In this document: in pieces, positions 15,601 through 45,993 of the stretch
Layout of the letters: each line of letters begins with the position of its first letter
How positions within the stretch are numbered: position 1 is the stretch's first letter
Virus record (IMG/VR): IMGVR_UViG_3300029267_003206
Location: 1 to 55,096 of that record
DNA: 55,096 nt
Strand: one strand, 5' to 3'
From: a virus
Lineage: Duplodnaviria; Caudoviricetes
The notes under the pieces: model-generated
What the model was told of the DNA's origin: nothing
The model's input: the letters and a program-made list of their open reading frames with translations, nothing else
The model's database searches: none
Made by a program: the position numbers and the translations under genes

Positions 15601-15715
15601 TATGCATCTTAAAGATTTCAGACTTTGTATCCGCATCTGTTGAAGGTCCAATCATTCGCCAATCTTTTGATGCCAGGTAAAATCTAATAACTTCATCATC
15701 TGCTAAATCACTCAT
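12662..15715 (-). CDS. Large tail tip/adhesin protein (1017 aa) with Ig/PKD-like and DUF2793-like segments
   Basis: Follows the tape measure; PPGGEVLGDFYYV...GAWAGQDGKVA..WGF motif; PPIASISA...SY...VELRVRND PKD-like segment. Confidence 0.6.
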   Translation of the reverse strand: MSDLADDEVIRFYLASKDWRMIGPSTDADTKSEIFKMHMATFQLYHDNGDLFGKPVYDPIHRLGMTPAASSPWGGPQRSRIAIKFKIPDAPHKGMYPRQVILFLPYDSSTAVIDNAFNPSIMVGKYSGFKFGNDAKFAEYDTDIEGKTPPTDSIPLDKFYSELGFGMNLDGKTSNKWKVKQPLPTFHVDAKYPLGGTGVSSITEISPYDYALCNGYNTSDKWWALNFSPMCYADNWAAGDEHEFLLWHMYDMADETLMGGVAESLFLEIWGPGYIRTGTFPNPGDITDNFDDTLWAEGGPVTIDGLGGDFVTPSNKSGPLLAVLWKFAEDANTAYDMAGELTLEPTEDRAIANFSWSPSEDTDFLAYRLGSCLMENPLSVQLGVSSDNQGLDKANLWIPMGYYPGMAIGEYNRVHFRIQTLIGGDTRQVATIKLFSNPVLGYRPFLEAVRNLGPELYKYVDATTNLRPTLSGGKLINNDINDKLYPVGAGIDSFQTPDNCQTYVEYSCKDVNLTAPPGGEVLGDFYYVNVGSGGAWAGQDGKVAEVTGVGPTTWGFYDLDVGAGLYNQANTTHYAKQNNLTLDTKGWKKIVVFKVPPNMVDYVGGMDLVFMRGNYSERASSVDFQQIGTGAYVIYVDWLDAFFDFNTFIWVIRRQITGVHFLFDDEGKGYTDEIFEMDVEFQDDPGGILSVSETSFLKVGDRVVIMDGLKPYLKIIASIEGNLLTFTSSTGHNFPARTQVYKCPEYLYTKSGDVAFSMAFESEDGFISDWVANEYDHTIGDIPPIASISAEKLLVKTGETFRVWGMESYLFDQTQVLGQGNARYEFQFNGGGWWLKNVPYIDLFVSAAGPVLVELRVRNDNLQYSPIVSMTIEVVDEIVSGYISDIINITDFSNFVLTEGIIGGRDVQADENIAGDEKTFDSVTKSVRKIRLSGLASTRHATHPIAKVNVWRNTLPVAFQELPDDLVTLLYGENHQTAFKFEIEGEEKYMLMGNFSRDRDWSDLEKRHWNADFTIVE

Positions 15716-24252: not shown

Positions 24253-25752
24253 TCAGGCCACATACCATCCGGTATTACCTGTTCCAGACATCTTCATATA
24301 TGTGATAAAGTTTGTAGTGTCCAGATACTTGTCCCCAACATTTCCAGTAACAGAGCCTTCGGGGGTGTTAGCTCCAGATGAGAATTTGCTCAGATTCCCA
24401 TCAGAGATTTTACTGTTCAGATTAGCAAGCGTATCTGCAGTGTGCGTAGAAGAGCCAAGCAGATGGGCCTTTGCGGGCTGATTATCTGCCAATTCACCTG
24501 ACAATCCAGCAACTGAGATTTCATCCGATCCACCATTTTCATGGCTTGTATGATGACCTTTTGGATCACCCAATGCAGCGATATCTCCAAGCTGACAACG
24601 TTTCTTGGCATAGGTATCTGTTGCATCTTCAATCAGAATCTCATCGGCAGTTGCCGGAGCAACATCATCCACAGCATGGATCTCACCAGACGTATCATCA
24701 TGGATAGCAGATGTATCAATACCATCTTCAGGAACAGCATTCTGATCATCTGCCAGAACACCAGATAACCCTGCTACAGAGATCTCATCTGATCCACCAT
24801 TCTGATGACTTGCTTTGTGAGCAGAAGGGGCAAAAGTACTTGGGATGCTAGCAAGATCAGAGTAGGTTACCTTCTTTGAGTTCGAGCCATCGTGGTCATG
24901 ACCAGTTGTTGTATGGAACAGAGCATCTATCTCTGTTTCTGTGTAATATAGCTGATCATGCTTATGCTCTGAACAGTCATTACCATCTGTCAGATCTGTA
25001 TGCTCCGCAGCGGTTAGATGGTAATACTCATCCGTTGTCCCACCCTGTTTATTAGCGGTGTCATTGTGGTTATAAATAGATGCCATCTTCACCCATGAAG
25101 AAGTGAAAACGTATGATGTATCTTCATCATCTACCCAACAGGCAAATCCTTCATTTGGTGTGGTAAACTCCCAATCAGCAGGATCATCACCTTCTGCAAT
25201 ACATATCGCTATATCATTCACAGCTCCACCAGACCAATCGCCACCTGTTCCGGCGACGATGTATCTATCTCCAATAGTAGGAGATGGAGCAGTTACGAGA
25301 TCCTTATCTTTGACAGAATCCTGCCATTCCAGACCCTGGGCAAGAGCATCCACATATCCCTTTGTAGCAAGATGTGCATCATCCGTAGGTGTTACACCTT
25401 TCACCACATCACTGAAATCTCTGGTTCCAGCTGCGAGAATATACTCTGTATGGTCATCTGATCCATAGGCAGAGAAAGCAGTTGCGTGATTTAACTGTCC
25501 ACCCTCTACTCCTGATGCGGAATGGTCGTGATCGTGAAAACCAGTTCCTCCCGCATCTACCCAAGAACCATTTACATATGCCTTATACGCATTGGCAGAC
25601 GTATCATAAAACGTCATACCATTCTCTGGTGTGCCTGTCCCATTCTTGTTCGAATCCCAGTTTTGGGATTGAATCCAAGTCAGAGCGGCAGCTTCACCTG
25701 CATGCTTGCCGATGAAGTTATGTTGTCCAAATGGTGCATCTAACGCCATCAC
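24253..25752 (-). CDS. His-rich fibre protein with DUF2793-like module
   Basis: ATKGYVD fibre motif; GDRYIVAG...WEFTTPNEGFACWVDDE; HxH motifs; SH(Q/E)NGGSDEISVAGLSG repeated twice. Confidence 0.7.
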   Translation of the reverse strand: MMALDAPFGQHNFIGKHAGEAAALTWIQSQNWDSNKNGTGTPENGMTFYDTSANAYKAYVNGSWVDAGGTGFHDHDHSASGVEGGQLNHATAFSAYGSDDHTEYILAAGTRDFSDVVKGVTPTDDAHLATKGYVDALAQGLEWQDSVKDKDLVTAPSPTIGDRYIVAGTGGDWSGGAVNDIAICIAEGDDPADWEFTTPNEGFACWVDDEDTSYVFTSSWVKMASIYNHNDTANKQGGTTDEYYHLTAAEHTDLTDGNDCSEHKHDQLYYTETEIDALFHTTTGHDHDGSNSKKVTYSDLASIPSTFAPSAHKASHQNGGSDEISVAGLSGVLADDQNAVPEDGIDTSAIHDDTSGEIHAVDDVAPATADEILIEDATDTYAKKRCQLGDIAALGDPKGHHTSHENGGSDEISVAGLSGELADNQPAKAHLLGSSTHTADTLANLNSKISDGNLSKFSSGANTPEGSVTGNVGDKYLDTTNFITYMKMSGTGNTGWYVA

Positions 25753-27659: not shown

Positions 27660-28364
27660 TTAAACCCCCAACAGACTCCGTTCTTTGGAATATAATTGCT
27701 TAACTTCCATCTCAGATTTCACAACAGTCCATAGTTTTGGTCTTGCTGTTGCTCCTATGAAATTTCCTCCGCTTCCATATTCTCCCCCCATCTCTGTATA
27801 AATTCCAGGGGTGACAGTTGGGGCAATATGAGATGCTTGGACACCTTTTGCTATCTCTTCCCCATCCACAAAGAAGCGTGCAAGACCACCATCGTTTACT
27901 GTGATAACTACAAGCTGCCAGGAACCAGAAACATTAATAGCCCCTGCTACAGTTTCTGAAACTTGAGATGTAACTCCCTGGATGGTTTCAATGCCCAAGA
28001 TACCAGATGCCTTAAGGTAACATCTATACCCACCAACCGCTGTCTGAAACTTACGAAAGAAATCTGCACTATGATCCAATCCAGGAGCAAGCCAGATAGC
28101 AATTGTAAACTCTCCACCAGGTTCTAATAACTGTTTATCTTTGTCTTCCCCTATCTGAATTACATCTGTATTCCGTAATTGACCATAATGGAATATGACA
28201 TATATTCCAGTAGATCGTGGTCCAGTCCAAACACAGGTATTCACCAACGCATCCATTGAATTTTTACTTCTTCCACGAATAACTGCTTCGTTTAATCCCT
28301 CTGCATATGGAAGGTCAAGCACCAGACCATCATTCAATGCTTCTCCATCATGACTCTGACTCAT
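27660..28364 (-). CDS. LamG/concanavalin-A-like domain protein
   Basis: GLVLDLPYAEG, FTIAIW, WQLVVIT, FFVDG, F.G...KLW..VKSEMEVKQLY. Confidence 0.85.
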   Translation of the reverse strand: MSQSHDGEALNDGLVLDLPYAEGLNEAVIRGRSKNSMDALVNTCVWTGPRSTGIYVIFHYGQLRNTDVIQIGEDKDKQLLEPGGEFTIAIWLAPGLDHSADFFRKFQTAVGGYRCYLKASGILGIETIQGVTSQVSETVAGAINVSGSWQLVVITVNDGGLARFFVDGEEIAKGVQASHIAPTVTPGIYTEMGGEYGSGGNFIGATARPKLWTVVKSEMEVKQLYSKERSLLGV

Positions 28365-31357: not shown

Positions 31358-32500
31358 TTAGATGGCTCCACTCTTAATGGCCTTCGCAAATTCATGGCAG
31401 TTGAATATCCCACATCCATAATTCTCATTGACGATGGCAGGGTTGGATTTTTCCCAGGTCTTGATGTTCAAATCACCGGATTTCTTCTCCAGCTCTTCTA
31501 CCTTCACGATGGGCTTCTTCTTCCAGGTATAGAAACCAAGTCTTCGACCTTTCTGGCAGACATAGGCAACACCTTGCCACATCCTTTCGGATACAAGGAA
31601 ATTGATTCCAGCTGTCTTCCCGATCTCTCCATTCAACAGAACAGAGTTATCTCCATATCTGCTTGCGTCTGTGAACCTTTCATCTTTTTCAAGATCATTC
31701 ATCTGGTTCTCATGAGTAACACAAGTGTCTGCTTTCCCATAGGATGTTGAACGCACCTTTGTCTTGGCGTTGACTATATCATCCCTCTGCAAGGATCGCA
31801 CCTGAGTGGCTTCAAGGGCATTGGTTCTGGTGGAATAGACATAATCAATCGCACAGACATATGCATTGGCAACAGGTGTGAAGAACTCTATGACTCCCCT
31901 AAAGAAGTCAAGGTAGTAATCTGTTCCAAGAACAGCTGCTACAGCTCCCGCTCCAAAGTCTGCCGTGAGGCTGGTGACTTCTAAGATTTTGTCATGTGCC
32001 AGATTGAACCGTTTTGCAGCCCCAGTTCCAGCTGTCAGGTTCTCAGCAGCAATAACTGTGGCATCGAAAACTTCGTTCCAGGTGCGGGCATCTGCTTTTC
32101 TTGCCATACCAGCAGCAAGAGCAGTTTCTGTTTCCCTGATAGCATCTATATCCATATCATCAATGGCATCTTCGTAAACTGTTTCAGAGTGACCAAATTT
32201 GGTTGGAGTGGAATCCACTGTGCTAAACACTTCTGGAGTCCCTACAGGCGGGACATCATCACCTGCATTAAAATCTATAGCATCAGACACTGCAGCAGAT
32301 TTCCTATATGTTCTTATTCTGCCTGGGTGTCCAACAAGGGCTGAATCTTCGTGAAGTATCTGCTTCCCTACGAGCATCGGCTCAAGGTCTGCCATGATAT
32401 CCTTCGTGATGAGCTTCTGAATACCAGAATTATCTACATCTGTCTCATCAAATGTGAAGTCTTCGAACCCTATATTTCCATTTTTCTTCCTGACTTTCAT
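31358..32500 (-). CDS. Major capsid protein (HK97 fold) with inserted Ig-like domain
   Basis: Follows protease and scaffold; TPTKFG...LAAGMARKAD; LLNGEIGKTAGINFLVS; insert GTDYYLDFFRGVIEF. Confidence 0.88.
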   Translation of the reverse strand: MKVRKKNGNIGFEDFTFDETDVDNSGIQKLITKDIMADLEPMLVGKQILHEDSALVGHPGRIRTYRKSAAVSDAIDFNAGDDVPPVGTPEVFSTVDSTPTKFGHSETVYEDAIDDMDIDAIRETETALAAGMARKADARTWNEVFDATVIAAENLTAGTGAAKRFNLAHDKILEVTSLTADFGAGAVAAVLGTDYYLDFFRGVIEFFTPVANAYVCAIDYVYSTRTNALEATQVRSLQRDDIVNAKTKVRSTSYGKADTCVTHENQMNDLEKDERFTDASRYGDNSVLLNGEIGKTAGINFLVSERMWQGVAYVCQKGRRLGFYTWKKKPIVKVEELEKKSGDLNIKTWEKSNPAIVNENYGCGIFNCHEFAKAIKSGAI

Positions 32501-32540: not shown

Positions 32541-33161
32541 TTAGAACTTTACTCCGTTCGCTCTGCCATAAATAAGGGCAGCGGCTCCAGCTCCTGGAAC
32601 CCATCCTTCTGTAAAGTTCTCATGATCGCCTTCTCCGGCTCCTGCCTGAGCAGGGGGTTGCTGTCCAGCTTCCTGACTGACAGGTGGTTTAGCTTGAGCA
32701 GGAGGGTCTGAAGAACCTTCTCCATCTGGAGTGAGAGGAGTGGCTGGAGATGCAGGTGGGATAGCAGGCTGAGGAGCAGGCGGGGTAGCTGGATTAGCAG
32801 GAGGAGCACCATCATTGGTCCCATTCTTGAGAGCTGAGATAGCACCATTCTGCTCAGACATCTTCGCTGTCAAAGCAGACAAAACTTCCATCTGCTTGTT
32901 TGAAAGCTCTTCCATCTTCTTGAGCCTTTCTTCAAGACCTTCTGGCATCTTTGGTTTTTTATCATCTTCCTCTGGAGGTTTAGTAGGATCTTCTTCCTCC
33001 TTTGGCTTGACAACATATTGACCATTTTGCAGTTCAACGTGAAACTTAGTAGCATCTATAGCTACAGTTCCTTCCGCAGAGACTGTTTTGGTATCCACTC
33101 CCATTTCCTGTAAAGACTTCAGGATGTCGGAGTAGGAGTCAGATTGAGGTTTGTCTGTCAA
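32541..33161 (-). CDS. Capsid scaffolding protein
   Basis: Between protease and MCP; coiled-coil plus Pro/Ala-rich region; GGAGG RBS with TTG start. Confidence 0.75.
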   Translation of the reverse strand: MTDKPQSDSYSDILKSLQEMGVDTKTVSAEGTVAIDATKFHVELQNGQYVVKPKEEEDPTKPPEEDDKKPKMPEGLEERLKKMEELSNKQMEVLSALTAKMSEQNGAISALKNGTNDGAPPANPATPPAPQPAIPPASPATPLTPDGEGSSDPPAQAKPPVSQEAGQQPPAQAGAGEGDHENFTEGWVPGAGAAALIYGRANGVKF

Positions 33162-33202
33162 ATTAATTCCTCCAACTGAGTGATATAATATATTAGTGAA
33201 TA

Positions 33203-33216
33203 TATATAAAGGTATG
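33203..33216 (-). promoter_or_regulatory. Archaeal TATA box for scaffold-MCP transcript
   Basis: Minus strand cataccTTTATATA about 40 nt upstream of the start. Confidence 0.6.
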
Positions 33217-33267
33217 TGTAGTATAGTATATGGAAGTTAAAAATGGCATATTTTCATAGAATACATC

Positions 33268-36200
33268 TCAATTATTAAGTTGCCTGGGGGTAATACCAGA
33301 TGGGAAAACTTTACAGCTATCTCCCTGGCAGGCTTTTAGAATTTGAGATGATTCAACGGCTGGACTATGACATATAGCAACACCTGTATATGCCATCCAC
33401 ATAGCCATTTGACTGCTGTCTAATTCATGAGCTACCTCTGCTGACGTTTGAAATGTGCCATCTAAGATAGCTTTAATACCATCTTCATCTGTTACAATAC
33501 CTTGAAATTTCGATGCTCCTTTATGCACCTTATTGTCTTCCTTACATGTCCACTCTAAATCATCATCCCATTCTACCTTTGTCATGATTCCTATTCTGCT
33601 TACTTCTTTATTATCATGGAAGTAGTTGATATAAGCCAGATTGGTTCCACGATGCCAAGGTTCCAATTGTGCTTTCTTAACAGATGATCTTGGATATATC
33701 TTCCCTTTAAATCGCCCCTCTCGGAAGAGAAGTCCTTCTACCTCCAAATATCCCTCATTGTTTATGTGTGTCTGAGTGATGCTAAAATCTTCGTGACCTA
33801 CGTCAAAAATCTCCTTCTTTGCTCCCGGAATAATCTTCCAGAAACCAACATCACCTTTCACCCTGAAAACATTTTTCACCCGTTCACCTTCCACCTTAAT
33901 TTCCATATAGTCTCCATCAATATTCTCTATAACAGCGATTCCTTCATCAAGAAGTTCTATCTGAGACAGTAAGGATTTAGACTGATTGAGGGTGTGTCCG
34001 GGAGGCAGATACCCATCAACCTGGGCTAATTTAGGGCTTCTAAGTGCCAACGAAGAGAATGTTTCTCGAAGTAGAGGATTCGATTCACATGTAAATGAGA
34101 ATGTCTGCCCCCCAAACACGAAGTTAAGATGCCATTGTTCTCTATTCTCTGTGCTGATCCCCTTGAAAATCTGATGCTGTAGAGAGAAATAAGAATCATG
34201 TGGGTTCTCAAGATGCTTAGGTAATTCCATCTCTACACCAGGTAATCTTTCATTCAGATCATTTCGGAAAGCAGACCTAATTTCTCGTCTGTTCTTCCCA
34301 GAATCTTTCTTCCAGTATTTATAATAGGAAGGTGTAAAGTTTACAACATGTCGTGGCAGACCCGTATAACCAATTGGAGGCATCCAGCTTTCATTATCTG
34401 CCTGACGAGTTAAGACAAATGGTAATCTGTTGGCTTTATATATATACCAACTGCCATTGTAATTCTTTTCCGAATACATCTTCTTGAGAACTGAACCATG
34501 ATACCAGAATTCTCTATAACCATCCTTAATGGTTAAGCATTCATATTCACCTCTGTCTAAATTTATGACATAAGCATCCCCTACCCACCCTTCTTTATCC
34601 CACCTCTTAAAGTCTCGATGGACAAAAGGTTCTGCTATGAATTTATAAGTTGGATTCTGCAAGTCTTTCTTTAACTCTGGCCAGACCTCTTTTGTGAACA
34701 TCTGCTTTACAGTAGAGAAACCTGTTTTGTTGGTGGAAAGTGTATAACAGGCAGGTTCTGTATATCCATCCATCTTCACACTACCTTTATACAATCGCAT
34801 ACAGGTATCTATTCCTTTTGTCAGTTGGCGGCGTAAGAAAAGAGATACCTTATCACCAGACACATAGGCTTGAAGAAGGAATTTGGCAGTTCCAATCTGA
34901 GGCCATTCAGAATGGTAATCCAGGTTGGTGTATATATCAGAACCTACATCTATAAGTTGAAGGAAGTTACCATCAGTTCTATATTCAACCTTATCTAATC
35001 CTTCATCTTCATTAGTCATCAAGAAGATAAATTCCGCTTCTTGCACTGAATTATCCTTTTTTGGGAAATTAATGTATTTATATGATACTCTGGTAGCCCT
35101 GACATGTGTGAAATACTTTCCAAACATCTCCATCAATTTCTTTTTGGGGAAGAGTTTAGATTCTCGATATGAGAAGAGAACATAGTTAAACTTTGTAGAT
35201 ACTTCTAAAAGCTCATTGATTCTCTGTTCAAATGTTTCCTTCGTCCACTCCCCTCCAAGGTTGAGTCCCTCATATGATCCAAAGAGAGCATGTTCCCAGG
35301 CATTATATTGTTTATAATAAGTCTTCGTGCTTCCTGTCTCAGATATATAAGGCGGATCAAAGTATGCTAAAGATTTAGATGGTAAATTTGATATATGCTT
35401 GAGGAAAGATATAGAATCAGATCGGACAAAATGTGCTTTCCCACCATCCCCACTCACATGACCATTGAATTTCTTAAGGCAGGTGGAAAGCCCCTGCTTT
35501 AAGAGCTTCAGCATTGAGATGCGATCTCTCTTCATCCTTTCCCATACTTTCTTGTGGATGCTATCTCTAAGATACCCAGCATACACCATAGTACCAGCTG
35601 AAGCAAGGAGTGAAGCTTTTGCCAGACTCCTCTTAGGTTCTGGCAATGAATCTGCTCTGCTTCTAAACCCATCCATAAACTTCTTGCAGGCAGTGTCGAA
35701 GTGAATGGCTTTGTCTTTTAAAGTTGTCATATATCCTCTCTGTGGAGGGGATGCAAGAAGCCAGTCAATTTCATCATCACTCAATTGGGTATCTTTATTC
35801 TTTACGATGCTATCATAGATAACCTGACTAATTTTGGAAGTATCCACCCCAACAACATTTAGACCTAACTTCCTCAGTGTGTATGACACTACGCCACAAC
35901 CTGAAAACCCATCCACGATGAATTGGACATCCTTTGGGATCTGTCTGACAATTTGTTCCATCAGTTTTCGTTTGGAACCTATATACGCTATAGGGTATGA
36001 CGTGAAGTCTTCCTGATCTGTTATCTGATAATTGGAATATGGAAAAGGGAAATCCAGGCCAGCCTTCCTCCTCTGCTGAGATATTATAATCGCTTGATGC
36101 ATTTTCTTTGCTTCTGCTTCGGTAGGGAAACATTTTATGATAGTTCCTTCTGGAGCATCTTTTGGGCCACCGGTGTCAGGATGCCCATGAACAACACACC

Positions 36201-37257
36201 ATTTGTCACCACGCTTCTCAACCCGCATGTCTGCCACGTTAACAACCATCCGCCCAACACCAGGTCTATTTATATTTCTCATCTGACTTCCACATTTGGG
36301 ACATGTGTAATCTTCACAATGAACAGGTGATGTCATCTGATACCCACAACTCAGACATTCACAGGTATACTCAATCGATGCAGAAAATTGAGGGTAATCT
36401 GGATTAGTCCTTCGTCTTCCAGGTATAATAGTATCTGGTCTTCCAATTCCAGGTCTTTCTTCTCTTCTCATCTGTCCCCCACATTTAGGGCATTTCAAGT
36501 CTTCACAATGACTTTCGCTTACCATCTGATACCCACATTTGATACATGCACAGGCGATACCAAAATCAATCGTATCTGCGAAGTTCTCATATTCTGAGAA
36601 GAGGTTTTTCTTTTTCAGCTCTGCCAGAACTTTCTCCAAAAATAGTTTCTTCTGGCCAGTGTAGTCTTCCAAGGTCAATGAAATCCCACGCTTTAAAATT
36701 TCTCGTAGAACAATCTGCCCAATACCATTATAATCTTTATCTGGTGATTCTACAGTCTTTTGACATATAATCTTCCAGTCATCCTCAAGTTGTATGTTAT
36801 CAAGAAGACGTGGATCATAATCATCCATAGATGTTACTAACTCGATGGATGGGTGTGGGTCAGAGAAAGACTTGAGGTCAAAAAATTCATCATCTCCCCC
36901 AACCGCATTTATAAACACATTCTGCTTGAAGGATCGGAAACGGAAAACAAGGCCAAAGGCAGGCCACTTATCAAACTCTGACCCTCCAATTTTCTGCTCC
37001 CACTGGCTCAATGTTAGTTTATGCATGTCTGCTAATTCTTCGAACATATACTCATCATCGATGGGCAGGATCTTATAGATATATATGGTCCCAGGAGATG
37101 CTACATGTTGAACATCTTTATAATCTGGATATACGATGAAATCAGTCTGCATAAGTTTATCGAATTCAACGTTATGGCAGATGCGGAGTAACATACCCAA
37201 AGTCTCTTCTTTAACCCCAGCTACTTCCTCAATGGACATCCTAATTGCTCTCATCAT
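33268..37257 (-). CDS. Multidomain prohead protease polyprotein: two Zn-ribbon repeats, D12-class N6-adenine DNA methyltransferase, two degenerate LigD-PE-like domains, C-terminal capsid maturation protease
   Basis: Between portal and scaffold; MTase motifs YIGSKRKL, DGFSGCG and YFDPPY; CPKCG.QMR...RPG.GR twice; protease-like LEVEG...NYFH...RIG...TSAEV...GVAICHSPA. Confidence 0.8.
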   Translation of the reverse strand: MMRAIRMSIEEVAGVKEETLGMLLRICHNVEFDKLMQTDFIVYPDYKDVQHVASPGTIYIYKILPIDDEYMFEELADMHKLTLSQWEQKIGGSEFDKWPAFGLVFRFRSFKQNVFINAVGGDDEFFDLKSFSDPHPSIELVTSMDDYDPRLLDNIQLEDDWKIICQKTVESPDKDYNGIGQIVLREILKRGISLTLEDYTGQKKLFLEKVLAELKKKNLFSEYENFADTIDFGIACACIKCGYQMVSESHCEDLKCPKCGGQMRREERPGIGRPDTIIPGRRRTNPDYPQFSASIEYTCECLSCGYQMTSPVHCEDYTCPKCGSQMRNINRPGVGRMVVNVADMRVEKRGDKWCVVHGHPDTGGPKDAPEGTIIKCFPTEAEAKKMHQAIIISQQRRKAGLDFPFPYSNYQITDQEDFTSYPIAYIGSKRKLMEQIVRQIPKDVQFIVDGFSGCGVVSYTLRKLGLNVVGVDTSKISQVIYDSIVKNKDTQLSDDEIDWLLASPPQRGYMTTLKDKAIHFDTACKKFMDGFRSRADSLPEPKRSLAKASLLASAGTMVYAGYLRDSIHKKVWERMKRDRISMLKLLKQGLSTCLKKFNGHVSGDGGKAHFVRSDSISFLKHISNLPSKSLAYFDPPYISETGSTKTYYKQYNAWEHALFGSYEGLNLGGEWTKETFEQRINELLEVSTKFNYVLFSYRESKLFPKKKLMEMFGKYFTHVRATRVSYKYINFPKKDNSVQEAEFIFLMTNEDEGLDKVEYRTDGNFLQLIDVGSDIYTNLDYHSEWPQIGTAKFLLQAYVSGDKVSLFLRRQLTKGIDTCMRLYKGSVKMDGYTEPACYTLSTNKTGFSTVKQMFTKEVWPELKKDLQNPTYKFIAEPFVHRDFKRWDKEGWVGDAYVINLDRGEYECLTIKDGYREFWYHGSVLKKMYSEKNYNGSWYIYKANRLPFVLTRQADNESWMPPIGYTGLPRHVVNFTPSYYKYWKKDSGKNRREIRSAFRNDLNERLPGVEMELPKHLENPHDSYFSLQHQIFKGISTENREQWHLNFVFGGQTFSFTCESNPLLRETFSSLALRSPKLAQVDGYLPPGHTLNQSKSLLSQIELLDEGIAVIENIDGDYMEIKVEGERVKNVFRVKGDVGFWKIIPGAKKEIFDVGHEDFSITQTHINNEGYLEVEGLLFREGRFKGKIYPRSSVKKAQLEPWHRGTNLAYINYFHDNKEVSRIGIMTKVEWDDDLEWTCKEDNKVHKGASKFQGIVTDEDGIKAILDGTFQTSAEVAHELDSSQMAMWMAYTGVAICHSPAVESSQILKACQGDSCKVFPSGITPRQLNN

Positions 37258-38630
37258 ACCACCTCCTCTAAAGAATCTATCTTCCGCATCATCTCATTCG
37301 CCGCTTCTACTTTATCTATAAAATCTACTTCACTGTCTATGCCAACCATCTTTAGAATAGCTTGTCTGATATTCTTGTTCTCTTCCTCATTATTCCCCAT
37401 CAGAACATCACTTTTAGCTACACGGAATATCTGCATAATCTTCTCTTTCTTTGTAGCTGCTAAGATATGTTCATAGTCAATGTAGAAATGTTCCTTCGAA
37501 TTTCCACCCATCCAGAGATCAACGGCTTTCTCGATGCGGAGATCTTTGGCAAATTTCTTCAGACGAAGTTCAAAGAATTCAGTTAATCCTTCGAGTCCAG
37601 CAGATGGTTGTCCTTCCATCGACATCAGGTAAACAGCAACTGGAATACCAAGTGTGGCTGCCTGGATTTTCCGCATATGCAATTCATCCATCGCCATCTG
37701 TTGGCTGACATTCGATGGAAGTTTATTATCCACAAAATCTACAGACATATAATCTGGTTTCATGTATGCCACCGAGTCAGGGTCTACAAACTGCTTTGCA
37801 ATTTTCTTCGCTTCTTTCTTCTTTGAATTAGATGATGGATTGCGATCATTCCCATATGTTACAATTGGTATGGGATAACCCTGTCGAAAGTTCTTCTGTG
37901 TTCTGGCATCTTGCACAGCATCAATTTGATCTATTATTCGGAACAGCAGTTCTACCCATCCCCATCCCCATTCCAAATTATGCAACTGGTTTATACGTGA
38001 CCAGATAACATCTTTATCTTGCTCAAACGTTGTTTCCCTATCCCTCCTGGATTCAAAACCCCAAGGCATCCCACGAACTGTTTTGATCATAGATGTTGTT
38101 GCACCCACCATCTGATATTCTCTAATATCCATAGTTATAAAATCCACCGCCTTCGCCTTTTTCCTATCCTGCTTTTCATATAAAACTTCAGTCAGACAAT
38201 TCCCATATATACCTAAATGCATAGGGGCCATACTAAAGAAAGCATTTTGGAAATTCGTCTTCTCTGGAGGCCACAGGTTACGTTTGAACTTCTCAAAAGT
38301 TTTCTGCTTCTCAAAGTGGAATCTATCCAACTGCATCAGTTCACAAACACATGCCTGGTATAATGCCACATTGGAAAACAGGAGGGGGTCTTTAACTGCT
38401 TGTCTCTCTAACCTCCAGAAATCTTTCCTGTTTAAAGTGTAATCTTGTAACTCTTCTGACTTAGGCTTAACTTTGTCAGATATAAAATTTAAAAATGACT
38501 TGATGCGGCCATCTCTAAATGACTTAGCAGTCACATTGTAGGATTGTGAATCTGGGTGATACTCCCTAACAGTCTTCCTAAGTTTCCTACTTCTCCCTGT
38601 TCTGTTACGTTTTCCAAATGGCCATACCAT
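37254..38630 (-). CDS. Portal protein
   Basis: Follows terL; HLGIYGNCLTEV, WGWGWVE, QGYPIPIVTYG and AATLGIP portal motifs. Confidence 0.85.
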   Translation of the reverse strand: MVWPFGKRNRTGRSRKLRKTVREYHPDSQSYNVTAKSFRDGRIKSFLNFISDKVKPKSEELQDYTLNRKDFWRLERQAVKDPLLFSNVALYQACVCELMQLDRFHFEKQKTFEKFKRNLWPPEKTNFQNAFFSMAPMHLGIYGNCLTEVLYEKQDRKKAKAVDFITMDIREYQMVGATTSMIKTVRGMPWGFESRRDRETTFEQDKDVIWSRINQLHNLEWGWGWVELLFRIIDQIDAVQDARTQKNFRQGYPIPIVTYGNDRNPSSNSKKKEAKKIAKQFVDPDSVAYMKPDYMSVDFVDNKLPSNVSQQMAMDELHMRKIQAATLGIPVAVYLMSMEGQPSAGLEGLTEFFELRLKKFAKDLRIEKAVDLWMGGNSKEHFYIDYEHILAATKKEKIMQIFRVAKSDVLMGNNEEENKNIRQAILKMVGIDSEVDFIDKVEAANEMMRKIDSLEEVV

Positions 38631-38631
38631 A

Positions 38632-40248
38632 TTACCATCTCTTTTTAGCTTTTAATCCATAAGCGCTATTATCATCATCATCTACTATCTCTCTATTCCC
38701 AACTGTTTTCTTACGAGAACCACCTGACTTCTTTAGGCTATGTGAATTGTTCTTCTTATCTTCTCTTTCTTCCACTTCTCCAGGTTTACCCATATCTATA
38801 AAACCATCTGCAGCGTCAAGTGTCAAACGATGACTATCAGGGAAGTCTGACTTATGTTGCATCCCTCTTTTATTCTGATGATCCACCCGTATCTTGTTAC
38901 CTACTTTTCTTCTAACCAGGGCACACATCTGTTTCTCAAACAGATCAACTTCGTCTTTCTTGACATCTGGATATGAATACTGTTTGTTCTGAGTCTTAAG
39001 TTTCATATCAGCAAATGATTGATCACGCAGAGTATCAAGTGTGTTAACCCTAACCAGATTCTCAATACCTGGAATCACAGTTCCATCTGCCAACTCAGTG
39101 TCAACTTCCAGGAAATCATTTAACACTCCACCTGGGGGATTATTTTCTGCCCGAAATTCAACGAAATTAAATCTGGAAGCTGCTAACCGAATATCAATGC
39201 TTTGAACAACATAATCATCCCCCCGCCAGTATTCCCAATAGATAATCTGCCTATCTCGTAGACGCATAACTTCCATAACAGTGCAGTCATTTGATTTGGC
39301 AACATCTAAACCACCTACACAGGGTTCCTCGCAAGAATCTAACCAGGGACCAGATTTACATTTTCTTAATGTCTTCTTATCCATAAAGTCTTGTCCCTCT
39401 GTCACATCCCAAACATGGAAAAACTGTGATTGCATAGCAGGGTGGTCAATTCCATATCTCTTGAAGCGACCAAGAACAAAACGCCTATAATCTTGCGTTC
39501 CTGGTTCAGAGAAACATCTCTCTAAGTCAATGATATGGAAGTCAGGATTTGGAGGAAGACCATTTTCCCTTCTTTCCATCTCATCTGTAACTTCATAATA
39601 TACCCTCCCATGTTCCTTTTCCTCATGTGAAGCTGTGAAAATATATACCATCGTCCCATTTCTTGCTGCTAACTGAGGATCGATGCTCTTTATTATCTTC
39701 CCCTCTGTTATAGATTGAGCTTCCTCAAGAACAGCCAGATCTAAGTCAGGACCTTCTATACATTTAGAAGTTGGAGATGCTGTATGTGTCAAGATATTAG
39801 AACCAGTAGAAAGCTTAATCCATTTGGAGTTATTAATGTCTGCATGAACTCCCAGGATTCCCGTATAGTAGAATGACTCTAATCTCTCTTTTACTTTGTC
39901 TGTGAAAAGTTTAGCAGGGTCATCAGATGGAGCATAGATGCCTACATTGAAGCCATTACGCATATGGGGGTAAAGTTCAGAAAAGAAGATTGGTATGATA
40001 ACACCTAATTGGGTAACTGTTTCTGCCAGCCCCTGGGACTTCCCAGACTGGCGGGGCATCATAATATAAATTACCTTCCCCTGTCTAAGTAAGACGCTTC
40101 TTATAACCTCCCACATCACTTCTACCTGGTAGCTACGTGGGATGAGTCCTGATACAGCCAGAGCCACACGCTTGAAAAGAGAAGGTGTAAATTCCTTCAT
40201 TTTGTAATGAGCAGCAAGTTCTCTGGCAACAACCATATCTGTCTTCAA
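38632..40248 (-). CDS. terL: Terminase large subunit
   Basis: Walker A PRQSGKS; Walker B AVLEEAQ; coupling motif FTA; nuclease GGLDVAKSND...SDFPDS. Confidence 0.93.
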   Translation of the reverse strand: MKTDMVVARELAAHYKMKEFTPSLFKRVALAVSGLIPRSYQVEVMWEVIRSVLLRQGKVIYIMMPRQSGKSQGLAETVTQLGVIIPIFFSELYPHMRNGFNVGIYAPSDDPAKLFTDKVKERLESFYYTGILGVHADINNSKWIKLSTGSNILTHTASPTSKCIEGPDLDLAVLEEAQSITEGKIIKSIDPQLAARNGTMVYIFTASHEEKEHGRVYYEVTDEMERRENGLPPNPDFHIIDLERCFSEPGTQDYRRFVLGRFKRYGIDHPAMQSQFFHVWDVTEGQDFMDKKTLRKCKSGPWLDSCEEPCVGGLDVAKSNDCTVMEVMRLRDRQIIYWEYWRGDDYVVQSIDIRLAASRFNFVEFRAENNPPGGVLNDFLEVDTELADGTVIPGIENLVRVNTLDTLRDQSFADMKLKTQNKQYSYPDVKKDEVDLFEKQMCALVRRKVGNKIRVDHQNKRGMQHKSDFPDSHRLTLDAADGFIDMGKPGEVEEREDKKNNSHSLKKSGGSRKKTVGNREIVDDDDNSAYGLKAKKRW

Positions 40249-44102: not shown

Positions 44103-44867
44103 TTGTCTGATAGCCAATCCACCTATGCAAAGGCTTTGATAAGAAAAGCAATTGAAAGAAGAGAAGCAAAGAAAGAAGCTAAACGGAGAAAACATAAAGG
44201 GAAGATATCAGAGCCGGAACACTATGTAAAACCAACAGACAAGATAAGATGCCGTAATCCATTATGCCAATTCAAAGAGCATTTTGGATATCCAGCAGAT
44301 TGGCCTGGCATCTTCACGGCCTTCTGTCCATTTTGTGGACAGTTAGGGAGAATCATAGTAGAAGGGGAACCAATTAGAGTTAATTGGGAAGACCCCAAGA
44401 CTCAAGAGCAGATATGGGCATATACAAATAACGGCTTCGTAAGGAGTCCCGATGCTCCAATTGACCCATATAAATATGTAGACAGATTCAGAGAATGGAG
44501 CAGGAAAAGGTCAGAGGAACTTCAACCAGATTATATCTGGTATGCCTATACCGATTCAGAAAAGGCAATTGAGAAAACAGTTGCCAGTATAGATATGGTA
44601 AAGATGGCAGAAGCTGGATTTCCAGAACCGATGAACTGTAATCCACTCATCTGTTCATTCAAGGGGCGTTCCTGCTTTGTAGGATATTCTGAAGGTGGAG
44701 CGAAAGAGGGAAGATGTCGATTAGGGATGATGCTTTGTGGTGTTACCCCAACATCCCAAAGGATGAGGATGAGAAGTGGGGAAGTGCAGAGAGTCAGGAG
44801 AGAAAAGGTTAAGGCCAGATTACGATTAAAGCAGAAGTTGAAAGGAATTGGAGGGGGGATTATATGA
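44103..44867 (+). CDS. Zn-finger hypothetical protein
   Basis: CRNPLC...CPFC plus a second Cys cluster; GGAGG RBS with TTG start. Confidence 0.7.
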   Translation: MSDSQSTYAKALIRKAIERREAKKEAKRRKHKGKISEPEHYVKPTDKIRCRNPLCQFKEHFGYPADWPGIFTAFCPFCGQLGRIIVEGEPIRVNWEDPKTQEQIWAYTNNGFVRSPDAPIDPYKYVDRFREWSRKRSEELQPDYIWYAYTDSEKAIEKTVASIDMVKMAEAGFPEPMNCNPLICSFKGRSCFVGYSEGGAKEGRCRLGMMLCGVTPTSQRMRMRSGEVQRVRREKVKARLRLKQKLKGIGGGII

Positions 44868-45306
44868 AGGAGTGGACGGGATGATAAAAATTCTAACTGC
44901 TATAGCATCCAAAGAATCTTTATCATGTTTAGATGATGAACCCGTAGTATTTGGGCCGGATTGTGGATGTTCAGAATGTGAGTGTGGATGTAGAAATAGG
45001 ATGGTGGGCCTGAAAACATACCACAATTCCACACTATTCAAAGTCCAAGAAGTTGATATCACTTGCTCATACTATGAGAAGCAGATATTTGATTACCTCT
45101 GCTACATAGGAATGAATGAAATAACAACACTAACAGAGATATCATCCTTAGCTCATAAGATGGCAGATGATATATTCTACATCACGAACCAAATGCAAAT
45201 TGGAGACATTGTAGAGAGAGAAGATGAAGTCTTCACAGTCATACGGAATACTAAAGCAGATATTAGAGAGCGATTAAAGTTAAAGCTCTCTGGGGGGAAA
45301 GGATAA
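44848..45306 (+). CDS. Cys-containing hypothetical protein (start probably 44881)
   Basis: CGCSECECGC; operon position. Confidence 0.6.
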   Translation: MEGGLYEGVDGMIKILTAIASKESLSCLDDEPVVFGPDCGCSECECGCRNRMVGLKTYHNSTLFKVQEVDITCSYYEKQIFDYLCYIGMNEITTLTEISSLAHKMADDIFYITNQMQIGDIVEREDEVFTVIRNTKADIRERLKLKLSGGKG

Positions 45307-45618: not shown

Positions 45619-45688
45619 AGCCGGATGGTATAATGGCAACGCATCCCCATTGGTGGGGAAGCTGATGGTTCAAATCCATCTCTGGCTA
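45619..45688 (+). tRNA. tRNA-like gene (Gln-like, aberrant anticodon loop; no CCA encoded)
   Basis: Acceptor AGCCGGA/TCTGGCT plus A; D-loop AATGG; T-arm GATGG-TTCAAAT-CCATC; anticodon arm TCCCC-ATTGGT-GGGGA has a 6-nt loop. Confidence 0.7.
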
Positions 45689-45993
45689 CTATAAATAAAA
45701 TGGAGGCAAAACAATATGACGGCAAATGAAGAACAGGCAGAAAGAGAACATAGAGAACGGATGATTAGTGCACTTGGAAGCCTGATCCTCCAGTTGGAGG
45801 TAATACGAATGAATCTGCAGAAAAAGATAGATGCTTCTACAGATGCCCATACCAAAGAGGTAGATATAAATGAAAGCTAAAAAATCTAACTCCGGTAAAT
45901 CTGTTTACATCAATCAGATACACGGCTCACCATCTCCAGAATACATACTGCAAGAGAATATAGATGGTGTTATAGTCAGAGTGAAAGGGCGGT

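Follow-up and report, generated by a model that had tools for sequence, protein, structure and literature searches.

Why should the gene in the prohead protease position of a virus genome also encode a DNA methyltransferase? The window, as we call the whole 55,096-nucleotide stretch of DNA analysed here, is the complete 55-kb genome of a marine virus. One of its open reading frames (33268–37257; this and every feature below lie on the minus strand) runs from an ATG start through 1,329 amino acids with no internal stop. The initial annotation took the encoded polyprotein (hereafter P0001) to be a prohead protease fused to a methyltransferase that is taken into the head and then freed by proteolytic cleavage.

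The long gene and its neighbours

Along the minus strand, the terminase gene TerL (38632–40248; phrog_2, E 1.6e-17) is followed by a portal gene, the polyprotein gene, a 206-residue ORF and the gene for the major capsid protein (MCP, 380 aa, 31358–32500; PF25209, E 7.3e-8; phrog_1650, E 7.1e-13). The portal protein, upstream neighbour of the polyprotein (458 aa, 37254–38630), has no match in Pfam or PHROG and was assigned from an atlas feature score of 0.98 to PF06381 clusters and a structure TM of 0.63–0.66 to Portal_Mu clusters. The 206-residue ORF downstream (32541–33161) occupies the scaffold slot by position; family searches gave it no recognisable family. Between portal and MCP the polyprotein is the only protease candidate, and gene order and ORF coordinates both agree with the initial placing of the long ORF in the protease slot. 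The motifs and repeats listed for it are likewise all present, at the stated positions or a few tens of bases away.

Metagenome-derived sequence raises a general doubt: so long an ORF could be an artefact, produced by chimeric assembly or by a pseudo-fusion through a lost stop codon or frameshift. We found nothing specific in favour of this. The gene has the same sequence in four independent contigs: a 4.1-kb stretch lies on one contig, with no differences, in each of four public runs from three studies (one run may be the source), and the exact 1,329-residue protein is on record from four contigs. P0002, a homologue of 1,308 residues and 65% identity, has the same architecture; P0003 and P0005, each 36% identical to P0001, keep the layout from methyltransferase to protease; and 55 IMG/VR loci carry the same C-terminal chassis. 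Chimeric assembly was rejected on the identical single contigs and the homologues of like layout. The artefact reading, a worry voiced with the initial annotation, is effectively refuted, and we rate its chances as close to nil: the fusion is real.

Nine structural units in one polypeptide

From N to C terminus, P0001 comprises an ASCH/PUA-like domain, a helical bundle, two zinc ribbons, a small β–α module, a D12 methyltransferase, three segments that we call R1, MID and R2, and a protease.

The N-terminal region is given an identity here for the first time. Residues 1–132 (36862–37257) have no Pfam match, and their AF2 model, built from a nine-sequence alignment (pLDDT 71), indicates an ASCH/PUA-like domain: Foldseek pairs the predicted model with ZmASCH (5y6b_B, E 5.4e-5), and VIA-wide retrieves 5guq_A (Z 11.3, rmsd 3.0, 123 aligned) and YqfB (9kyf_A, Z 9.9). 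Together with the modelled helical bundle that follows (aa 133–230, 36568–36861), it forms an N-terminal unit common to P0001, P0002, P0003, P0005, P0006 and P0022. Two Cys4 zinc ribbons (aa 234–328, 36274–36558), seen in the model with a disordered linker between them, match PF23455 (DUF7129) in two stretches (E 1.7e-8; 34.5 bits against a cutoff of 30). Their CxxC motifs at residues 238/256 and 301/319 are the two Cys repeats (CxxC...CPKC) of the initial annotation. The KRGDKW...TEAEAKK module noted there is present too (36103–36216), within a unit modelled as three strands plus a helix (aa 345–398, 36064–36225; pLDDT about 73–83) that matches no family and is common only to P0001, P0002 and P0005.

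The methyltransferase is a D12-class (Dam-type) N6-adenine enzyme with intact motifs, and adenine methylation is its predicted activity. Residues 419–749 (35011–36003) match phrog_27806 (E 4.5e-29), and residues 425–656 match PF02086 (61.4 bits against a cutoff of 22, E 1.4e-16). Each of the motifs on which the original assignment to the alpha class rested was located: YIGSK at residue 425 (35971–35985), DGFSGCG at 35893–35913 and DPPY at residues 634–637 (35347–35358). We take FxGxG, here FSGCG (aa 451–455), to be the SAM-binding motif and DPPY the catalytic one; the former precedes the latter, which is the alpha-type order.

Behind the methyltransferase lie two barrels resembling the phosphoesterase (PE) of LigD. 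The fold is clearest in R2 (aa 1021–1147, 33817–34197): VIA matches it to the archaeal PE 3p43 (Z 16.0, rmsd 2.2, 115 aligned of 124), 3p4h (Z 15.6) and 3n9b_B (Z 14.4), Foldseek finds 3n9d (E 2.2e-5), and the family profile A3 finds 3p43_A among PDB sequences (E 1.3e-8). For R1 (aa 792–942, 34432–34884; model pLDDT mostly 88–97), which carries a helix insertion, the evidence for a PE barrel is indirect, through profile alignment with R2 (hhalign probability 96.5%, E 9.9e-10, 63 columns). The initial proposal of two LigD-phosphoesterase-like repeats therefore holds for the fold and fails for the catalytic residues, which are degenerate in both copies. In MbaPE, the Mn-binding residues H36, H42 and D44 and the phosphate-binding R46 are reported as essential (PMC3082917). 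The R2 of P0001 has Q/Q/H/N in the H/H/D/R columns, where HHDR survives in only 4 of the family's 96 R2 sequences, and it carries a loop particular to the family (N-P-T-K), which reads LNQSK in P0001. Of 150 relatives, 104 show an H-x(4-7)-H-x-D-x-R motif at the corresponding place in R1; P0001 does not. PF13298 (LigD_N) does not match residues 792–1147 even at E≤1; it matches R1 in 6 of 12 relatives tested, the best (P0135) scoring 31.1 bits, which is the cutoff itself. With the catalytic His/His/Asp/Arg residues lost, neither barrel is a phosphoesterase in P0001.

Between the barrels, MID (aa 943–1020, 34198–34431; pLDDT 91–97) is the most conserved segment of the family (PYVL..A...W.PP.G.SALP...P....YW....R..L, with P946 and W982 invariant). 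It is present in 134 of 150 relatives and in 54 of the 55 IMG/VR loci, and has no Pfam family. In the P0001 lineage, R1, R2 and MID probably serve as a docking and structural module linking cargo to protease.

The C-terminal domain (aa 1161–1326, 33280–33777) is modelled as a serine protease of the assemblin/HK97 fold. Its best herpesvirus match in VIA is the pseudorabies protease (4v07_B, Z 8.6, rmsd 4.0, 136 aligned), a middling fold match; herpesvirus proteases fill ranks 7–30 (24 entries, Z 5.9–8.6), after which Z drops to 4.4. Foldseek against the PDB gives a probability of 1.00. BFVD yields 93 matches with E no greater than 1e-3; among the best 50, 13 carry the names prohead protease, XkdF or scaffold, the prohead-protease matches having E values of 4e-6 to 1e-4 and probability 1.00. 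His1214, Ser1272 and Glu1274 are invariant in all 32 sequences with this protease type, and His1214 and Ser1272, in that order, are the putative catalytic pair. The Pfam peptidases (S78, S78_2, S77, S21) match none of 15 members at E≤5, and alignment to the XkdF profile by hhalign is weak (E 0.023). The domain belongs to an assemblin/HK97-fold family absent from Pfam, and the His/Ser protease-like end first read from the sequence does adopt a herpes/HK97 protease fold in the model. A disordered linker joins R2 to the protease (aa 1150–1165, 33763–33810; pLDDT <50 at model residues 391–406) and is a candidate region for self-cleavage.

Variable cargo and its possible routes

Relatives of P0001 number 268 proteins, and across the 55 IMG/VR loci the chassis order R1-MID-R2-protease is invariable. 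In the survey of relatives proposed with the initial annotation, what lies ahead of the chassis varies: ATP-dependent DNA ligase, D12 or C5 methylases, 2H, MBL, UDG and NUDIX domains all occur. Among 37 complete host ORFs, 22 carry a ligase, 9 a D12 domain, 6 an MBL domain, 2 a 2H domain, 2 UDG plus NUDIX and 1 a C5 methyltransferase; 6 have no Pfam family, and Peptidase_S78_2 stands at the extreme C terminus of 16. The R1 of most relatives retains the PE catalytic motif, giving a LigD-like pair of ligase and PE. Head genes are frequent neighbours. In a Pfam scan of up to three neighbours per locus, 22 of the 37 loci had at least one match to a portal, MuF, terminase, MCP, scaffold, protease or neck family (MCP lies downstream in 11), and 15 had no head-module match among the scanned neighbours.

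Not every chassis has a protease fused to it. No recognisable protease domain is found in 73 of 151 family proteins, many of which are fragments or products of split genes. In loci L020, L022, L025, L037 and L040, a P0001-type protease is a separate gene directly 3′ of the cargo gene, and in L037 and L040 its ORF also has the phage scaffold domain PF06810, the classic protease-scaffold arrangement. Where the locus is split, the cargo ORF stops at MID and the next ORF begins with R2, which stands alone (L025, L037, L040), is joined to the protease (L051, L052/53) or heads a longer ORF (L050). This division fits a docking pair.

We infer from gene position and family comparison that capsid loading followed by proteolytic release of the methyltransferase is the best-supported mechanism. 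The protease has to work inside the procapsid, so the chassis would bring the entire polyprotein into the head during assembly. Once inside, the protease (His1214/Ser1272) would become active, digest the scaffold and cut the polyprotein at its disordered linkers, freeing a fragment of ASCH domain, zinc ribbons and methyltransferase. That fragment might methylate the genome during packaging; alternatively it might stay in the head and be ejected with the DNA, protecting it from restriction in cis by analogy with P1 DarB. In favour of loading are the domain architecture and the lack of another protease candidate between portal and MCP, the joining of the same protease type with a PF06810 scaffold domain (L037, L040), the 22 loci with head-module neighbours, and the precedent of C-terminal assemblin-like peptidases in polyvalent proteins that Iyer et al. 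(2017, PMC5512222) predict to be packaged. Against it, no motif for cleavage was recognised, the presumed scaffold position holds an ORF of no recognisable family, and the protease evidence includes a middling fold match, no Pfam peptidase match and a weak XkdF alignment. Moreover, a 150-kDa passenger on every protease copy would take up much room in a 55-kb capsid, a methyltransferase inside the head needs SAM, many family proteins have no recognisable protease domain, and 15 loci had no head-module match among the scanned neighbours. On balance, we give an even chance to the proposal that this gene encodes a prohead protease as the C-terminal domain of a polyprotein with head-loaded, protease-released methyltransferase cargo.

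The disordered linker lies exactly between R2 and protease, which would suit a polyprotein made only for co-expression. Here fusion would ensure late, stoichiometric synthesis; the protease, with or without R2, would cut itself free in the cytoplasm and enter the prohead alone, and the methyltransferase would act there on replicated genomes not yet packaged, in the manner of ordinary phage Dam methylases. Phage D12 methyltransferases are usually soluble and cytoplasmic, and covalent linkage is not essential, since cargo and protease are separate genes in some relatives. Proteases of the HK97/assemblin type, however, generally become active only once co-assembled. A split cargo gene still ends in R1-MID and adjoins the protease gene within the head module, which suggests retained physical coupling rather than mere co-expression, and the fused enzymes (ligase, PE, UDG, methyltransferases) are of the kinds that act on incoming DNA. 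We consider co-expression alone rather unlikely.

The polyprotein gene directly follows the portal gene, and the zinc ribbons and ASCH domain are nucleic-acid-binding folds. A prohead-anchored polyprotein might act on DNA as it enters, methylating it in P0001 and sealing nicks or healing ends in relatives, while the PE-like barrels and zinc ribbons hold the DNA; it would then be degraded rather than ejected. The LigD PE is described as a fold that binds DNA 3′ ends (PMC3082917, PMC3300020), but both barrels of P0001 have lost the catalytic and phosphate-binding residues, which makes DNA-end binding by R1 and R2 uncertain. A portal contact, and a supply of SAM or ATP inside the prohead, would be further demands of this explanation, which strikes us as improbable.

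The family as a whole may bring DNA-modifying and DNA-repair enzymes into virus particles. We tentatively propose, while thinking it more probably wrong than right, that R1-MID-R2 is a capsid-loading device derived from a LigD phosphoesterase, coupling changeable DNA enzymes to the prohead protease or scaffold. The coupling would be covalent or, where the locus is split, would come from MID docking onto R2. Its kit would include LigD-like ligase and PE, UDG, NUDIX, MBL nuclease, 2H/PNK end-healing enzymes and Dam/Dcm methylases. If so, many of the uncultured tailed viruses that infect bacteria and archaea eject a virion-carried toolkit for repair, circularisation and anti-restriction with the genome, and P0001 is a methylase-only derivative whose PE barrels survive purely as a loading module.

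Comparison with known systems

The C terminus of P0001 shares its predicted fold with HK97 gp4 (Peptidase_S78), PBSX XkdF (Peptidase_S78_2) and herpesvirus assemblin. Like prohead proteases it has the putative catalytic His before the Ser, a pair invariant among P0001-type proteases, and its gene lies between portal and MCP. It differs in that none of the 15 members compared matches a Pfam peptidase model. Protease-scaffold fusions are known from herpesvirus pUL26 and lambda C/Nu3; in contrast to these, the protease of P0001 does not lead a scaffold and stands at the extreme C terminus behind a passenger of about 1,150 residues.

R2 shares the eight-stranded barrel of LigD and archaeal PEs (3N9B/3N9D, 3P43, 3P4H, 5DMP; Z 13–16), and the family profile recovers such chains by sequence. 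The LigD pairing of ligase and PE recurs in the family: of 78 relatives that carry a ligase, 69 combine an ATP-dependent ligase with an R1 bearing H..H.D.R. Unlike LigD, P0001 has neither ligase nor POL domain, and in its barrels the Mn-binding His/His/Asp set and the phosphate-binding Arg are gone; R2 has a family-specific insertion, and MID has no LigD counterpart. The archaeal virus ANMV-1 (KP703175) provides a ligase-bearing example. Its AJP62006 (866 aa), annotated only as 'ATP-dependent DNA ligase' and encoded directly after the portal gene (PF06381), has a ligase (PF01068) instead of a methyltransferase ahead of R1-MID-R2. Residues 530–826 align to residues 840–1110 of P0001 (E 2e-15); no protease domain was found in this ORF.

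The general class is already known. Polyvalent proteins, as described by Iyer, Burroughs, Anand, de Souza and Aravind (2017, PMC5512222), combine many effector domains with a portal, terminase or head gene setting and a C-terminal assemblin-like peptidase, and are predicted to be packaged and to reach the host along with the DNA. P0001 resembles them in domain richness, gene setting and C-terminal peptidase: its ORF beside the portal gene holds nine structural units, where at least two effector-type domains in a head-gene setting define the class. Their methyltransferases, according to the main text of that paper, are for the most part of the EcoKI/TaqI-like kind, with an SF2 helicase as partner, whereas that of P0001 is a D12 Dam-type enzyme without a helicase. 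The main text makes no mention of XkdF, DNA ligase, LigD, ASCH or PUA; its supplementary architecture list may hold similar forms. We found neither the domain composition of P0001 nor its PE-derived module in print, and the large family of such protease fusions is apparently undescribed.

For the cargo itself, P1 DarB offers a functional model by analogy: an adenine methylase that forms part of the virion head and shields the injected DNA in cis (summarised in PMC5512222). DarB belongs to a different methyltransferase family, has a helicase partner, is not fused to a maturation protease and takes a different route into the head. That route depends on DarA and Hdf.

The polyprotein gene and its surroundings

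The gene at 33268-37257 on the minus strand is a stop-free ORF encoding 1329 residues. The initial annotation took it for a single fusion, and indeed the 4.1-kb stretch that covers it (33200-37300) occurs on one contig with 0 differences in each of four public runs from three studies. These runs are sediment and seawater metagenomes, one of which is possibly the source of the window; the sequencing-run search found no RNA data set carrying the stretch. All of the motifs named in that annotation lie where it placed them.

The position of the gene in a head module is established. TerL (minus strand; phrog_2, E 1.6e-17) is encoded upstream, and just before the polyprotein gene lies a 458-residue portal (minus strand), assigned from protein atlas portal clusters: it matches neither Pfam nor PHROG, and in the protein atlas it has a feature score of 0.98 to PF06381 and a structure TM of 0.63-0.66 to Portal_Mu. 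Downstream follow a 206-residue ORF in the scaffold slot (32541-33161, minus strand), for which Pfam and PHROG searches return no family, and the major capsid protein (minus strand; PF25209, E 7.3e-8; phrog_1650, E 7.1e-13). With its 55,096 bp and an exact terminal repeat of 48 bp, the window represents a complete virus record; its genes diverge from ~42 kb, and the structural genes form a minus-strand block at 11.6-41.3 kb.

The virus is very poorly charted, because 42 of the 46 further ORFs scanned, all outside the head-module genes discussed here, have no Pfam family. Its closest TerL matches are in Bacillus and Streptomyces phages at 25% identity, and a genome-contig scan for a host returned just five short MAG contigs (Planctomycetota, an unclassified bacterium, a deltaproteobacterium and an Aenigmatarchaeota archaeon). 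The four Pfam-matching ORFs include one of 152 residues with DUF7715 (44848-45306, plus strand; E 1.6e-10). DUF2793 occurs in two large ORFs (12662-15715, minus strand, 1017 residues, E 5e-5; 24253-25752, minus strand, 499 residues, E 1.4e-10) and a Laminin_G_3/ConA-like domain in the ORF at 27660-28364 (E 1.5e-11); these ORFs probably encode tail fibres or proteins that bind the receptor. At 45619-45689 (plus strand) ARAGORN reports a tRNA-like gene, to which it gives no amino-acid identity and an 'anticodon (tg)' of two bases; this may be either an atypical tRNA or a spurious call.

Domains of the polyprotein

The N-terminal half was modelled with AlphaFold (aa 1-425, 9-sequence alignment, pLDDT 71). 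Residues 1-132 are predicted to form an ASCH/PUA-like domain: the model matches ZmASCH (5y6b_B) at Foldseek E 5.4e-5 and, VIA-wide, 5guq_A at Z 11.3 (rmsd 3.0, 123 aligned) and YqfB at Z 9.9. A homologue search with aa 1-232 returned the polyprotein itself and one relative, P0002, and nothing else. The model continues with a helical bundle (aa 133-230), two Cys4 zinc ribbons (CxxC at aa 238, 256, 301 and 319; DUF7129 in two stretches, 34.5 bits with the cutoff at 30) and a small three-strand-plus-helix module (aa 345-398). The methyltransferase (aa 419-749) is clearly a D12/Dam-type enzyme by its sequence, in agreement with the class first assigned: PF02086 scores 61.4 bits (cutoff 22), phrog_27806 covers aa 419-749 at E 4.5e-29, and FSGCG precedes DPPY.

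A second model, of aa 760-1329, was built from a 49-sequence alignment (pLDDT 85.4). Its C-terminal domain (model residues 402-570, aa 1161-1329) has the fold of herpesvirus and prohead proteases, so that the protease-like end proposed earlier is borne out. The best structure match is the pseudorabies protein 4v07_B (Z 8.6, 136 aligned), and 24 herpesvirus protease entries stand at ranks 7-30 with Z 5.9-8.6; the following row has Z 4.4. The viral structure library BFVD holds 93 matches to the C-terminal model at E<=1e-3, and 13 of the best 50 are named as prohead or maturation protease, XkdF or scaffold (24 are nameless, 11 'uncharacterized' and two have other names). All 32 sequences of this protease type share His1214, Ser1272, Glu1274 and the residues at four Gly/Pro positions. 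Not one of 15 members of the type has a Pfam peptidase match at E<=5, and we therefore regard it as a branch of the assemblin/HK97 fold that is not yet catalogued. A profile comparison by hhalign with XkdF, another prohead protease type (Peptidase_S78_2), is too weak to use (E 0.023, prob 2%). Two tail cysteines after the protease core, at aa 1310 and 1315 (C-x4-C; ~33313-33330), are kept in 27/32 and 22/23 sequences. Another BFVD match, the 679-residue A0A6J5N5R9 of an uncultured phage ('Ferritin/DPS protein domain containing protein', E 2.9e-4), may be a further cargo-protease fusion with a different passenger.

Between the methyltransferase and the protease lie two LigD-phosphoesterase (PE)-like barrels, R1 (aa 792-942) and R2 (aa 1021-1147), separated by a conserved motif of ~70 residues, MID. 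R2 (model residues 262-388) superposes on 3p43 with Z 16.0 (rmsd 2.2, 115/124 residues), on 3p4h with Z 15.6 and on the Pseudomonas LigD PE with Z 14.4 (Foldseek E 2e-5); 3p43 and 3p4h are archaeal LigD-type phosphoesterases. By sequence alone, a profile built from 10 family members picks out these two entries among PDB sequences (3p43_A, E 1.3e-8; 3p4h_A, E 8e-6). All PE-chain matches in the 570-residue model fall on R2, and R1 was placed through its alignment to R2 (profile-to-profile prob 96.5%, E 1e-9, 63 columns); in the model its strand pattern is that of R2 plus an inserted helix. As a single sequence the C-terminal 570 residues match 0 Pfam families at E<=10. Searched by phmmer against PDB sequences they give p53 entries at E>=0.033, which are chance matches; the relative P0054 gives no match, and P0041, another relative, gives 3p4h at E 0.38 only, colinear and spanning the catalytic motif.

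The fold is right, yet the enzyme appears to have been lost in this lineage, because the catalytic residues are gone. In MbaPE, His36, His42, Asp44, Arg46 and His78 are described as essential (PMC3082917); in the HMMER alignment the His42/Asp44/Arg46 columns read Q1041/H1043/N1045 in R2 of the polyprotein, and column 1029, which co-varies with the catalytic columns, is Q. Of 96 R2 sequences in the family, just 4 retain H/H/D/R. R1 carries H-x(4-7)-H-x-D-x-R in 104 of the best 150 of 268 relatives, ~150-220 residues before MID and farther in a few (typically H-x-R-G-[KR]-S-x-H-x-D-x-R); R1 of the polyprotein is without it. PF13298 (LigD_N) matches R1 in 6 of 12 relatives tested, the top score of 31.1 bits (P0135) equalling the cutoff, and has no match in the polyprotein. 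Both domains thus look enzymatically dead with the fold retained, as if the fold of a repair enzyme had been co-opted for a structural role and had then lost its activity. The domain reading of the initial annotation holds overall, and the architecture is established, with two corrections: its LigD-PE-like repeats stand as folds and not as enzymes, and the N-terminal region that it left unnamed is, on the model, ASCH-like.

A conserved chassis with changing enzymes

The survey of homologues for variable cargo, proposed at the outset, found it: ligases, D12 and C5 methyltransferases, 2H, MBL, UDG and NUDIX enzymes stand ahead of one chassis, R1-MID-R2-protease. Searched exhaustively by HMMER, aa 760-1329 yielded 268 proteins at E<=1e-3 (73 of them at E<=1e-10 and 12 at E<=1e-30), of which the best 150 were examined. 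Pfam assigns the top 47 an ATP-dependent DNA ligase (23), a D12 methyltransferase (18), a C-terminal Peptidase_S78_2, XkdF (11), a 2H phosphoesterase (4), a C5 methyltransferase (2) and MBL, PNK3P and intein domains (one each); 15 have no family. Local HMMs applied to 151 proteins detect the ligase in 78, D12 in 39 and MID in 135, and the protease is XkdF-type in 42, of the polyprotein's own type in 36 and neither in 73. The R1 catalytic motif occurs in 69/78 ligase-bearing as against 35/73 ligase-less proteins, a co-occurrence that is the ligase+PE pairing of LigD. The motif is missing from all four full-length proteins with D12, the polyprotein's protease type and no ligase (the polyprotein itself, P0001, with P0002, P0005 and P0020), whereas P0003, of the same layout, has kept it. 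A tblastn search with the whole polyprotein against 50,697 phage records found only the archaeal virus ANMV-1 and one Erysipelothrix phage methylase; in ANMV-1 the same chassis stands behind a ligase, directly after the portal gene. Inteins or LAGLIDADG homing endonucleases sit inside the cargo, beside the ligase domain, in P0023 (2049 residues) and in two IMG/VR loci (L015:3900-9104, L055:2340-9062).

Scanning IMG/VR with the MID+R2 alignment gave 55 loci, in which local HMMs detect MID in 54, R1 in 49 and R2 in 46, and the order R1-MID-R2-protease is without exception. The 37 complete host ORFs carry ligase (22), S78_2 (16), D12 (9), MBL (6), 2H (2), UDG+NUDIX (2) and C5 methyltransferase (1); six are family-less. 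In a scan of 107 neighbouring ORFs (at most three per locus), 22 of the 37 loci have a head, packaging or neck family in at least one neighbour: upstream a portal (5), MuF (5) or terminase (3), and downstream the major capsid protein (11) or a separate protease (6); a scaffold occurs in two. Neighbours in the remaining 15 are cargo-type enzymes, unrelated families or nothing. By jackhmmer the window's portal, scaffold-slot, MCP, TerL and 346-residue ORFs have 0 matches among all ORFs of the 55 loci, and so the window virus is not close to these viruses outside the polyprotein gene. ORFs upstream of the chassis gene in two loci encode a PF07737 zincin-type metallopeptidase (L032:4535-5887; L033:3600-5432, the latter also with MuF), a MuF and metallopeptidase pairing typical of polyvalent proteins already described.

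Some loci divide or shorten the chassis. The polyprotein's protease type is a separate gene just downstream in five (L020, L022, L025, L037, L040), joined in L037 and L040 by a PF06810 scaffold domain. In split loci the cargo ORF stops a few residues past MID and R2 begins the following ORF, alone in L025, L037 and L040, as a fusion with the protease in L051 and L052/53, and at the head of a longer ORF in L050. L037:6078-10586 and L040:4152-10424 thus have three genes, for cargo-R1-MID, a 203-215-residue protein that is roughly R2 alone, and the protease with PF06810. In five others (L038, L039, L043, L044, L048) R2 is missing and MID runs straight to XkdF. The cargo of L051:4815-9020 and L052:4980-8210, NUDIX + ATP-dependent ligase + uracil-DNA glycosylase (+ D12 methyltransferase) and then R1-MID, looks like a base-excision-repair-like kit within a head module; in both, the R2-XkdF protease sits in a following ORF. 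Because split loci part cargo-R1-MID from R2, we suggest that MID on the cargo side and R2 on the protease side are a docking pair.

Proposed capsid loading and known systems

Loading of the polyprotein into the capsid is plausible and is the likeliest reading. A maturation protease has to be inside the prohead, and a passenger fused to it would enter too. The main rival, less likely but credible, is that the polyprotein serves co-expression and the methyltransferase never enters the head. A complex prediction of aa 936-1329 with the 206-residue scaffold-slot ORF scored 0.00 and is uninformative either way. If the passenger is loaded, the protease would then free it by cutting at disordered linkers; the models have such linkers (pLDDT <50) at aa 221-232, 268-295, 331-342, 400-425 and 1150-1165, among which no shared cleavage motif is seen by eye. 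The freed ASCH-zinc ribbon-methyltransferase fragment could methylate the genome while it is being packaged or afterwards, or leave with it on ejection.

Head loading of this kind would amount to a simple, genetically encoded rule for tailed viruses: fuse enzymes upstream of R1-MID-R2-protease. It would be a widespread, unannotated strategy by which virions bring their own methylase or, in relatives, a LigD-like ligase/phosphoesterase, glycosylase or NUDIX enzyme, to meet host restriction or to repair or circularise DNA damaged in a long extracellular life in sediments. Three sequence families missing from Pfam are now defined: MID, the R2 barrel in its degenerate form, and the protease type of the polyprotein. 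With them, genes in the 'protease slot' of environmental viruses would be better annotated.

Fusions of this general kind are already known. Phage polyvalent proteins were defined by Iyer et al. 2017 (PMC5512222), who noted that their assemblin-like peptidases are 'always at the C termini' and suggested that these peptidases do processing work as the virion assembles. The methyltransferases described there are EcoKI/TaqI-like and accompany SF2 helicases (DarB type); the words XkdF, DNA ligase, LigD, ASCH and PUA do not occur in the article text, whose full architecture lists are external supplements. Our literature search found nothing relevant on ligase/PE/methyltransferase-protease fusions, on XkdF with ligase or on LigD phosphoesterase in bacteriophage virions. 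The wider family-level picture, with R1-MID-R2 as a loading chassis for enzymes of repair and modification, is possibly new. NHEJ components are reported absent from about 3,000 actinobacteriophages (Sharda et al. 2020, PMC7719229), and certain mycobacteriophages are reported to use the LigD of their host (Pitcher et al. 2006, as cited in PMC7719229); against that background it stands out that viruses encode LigD-like ligase+PE units within head modules.
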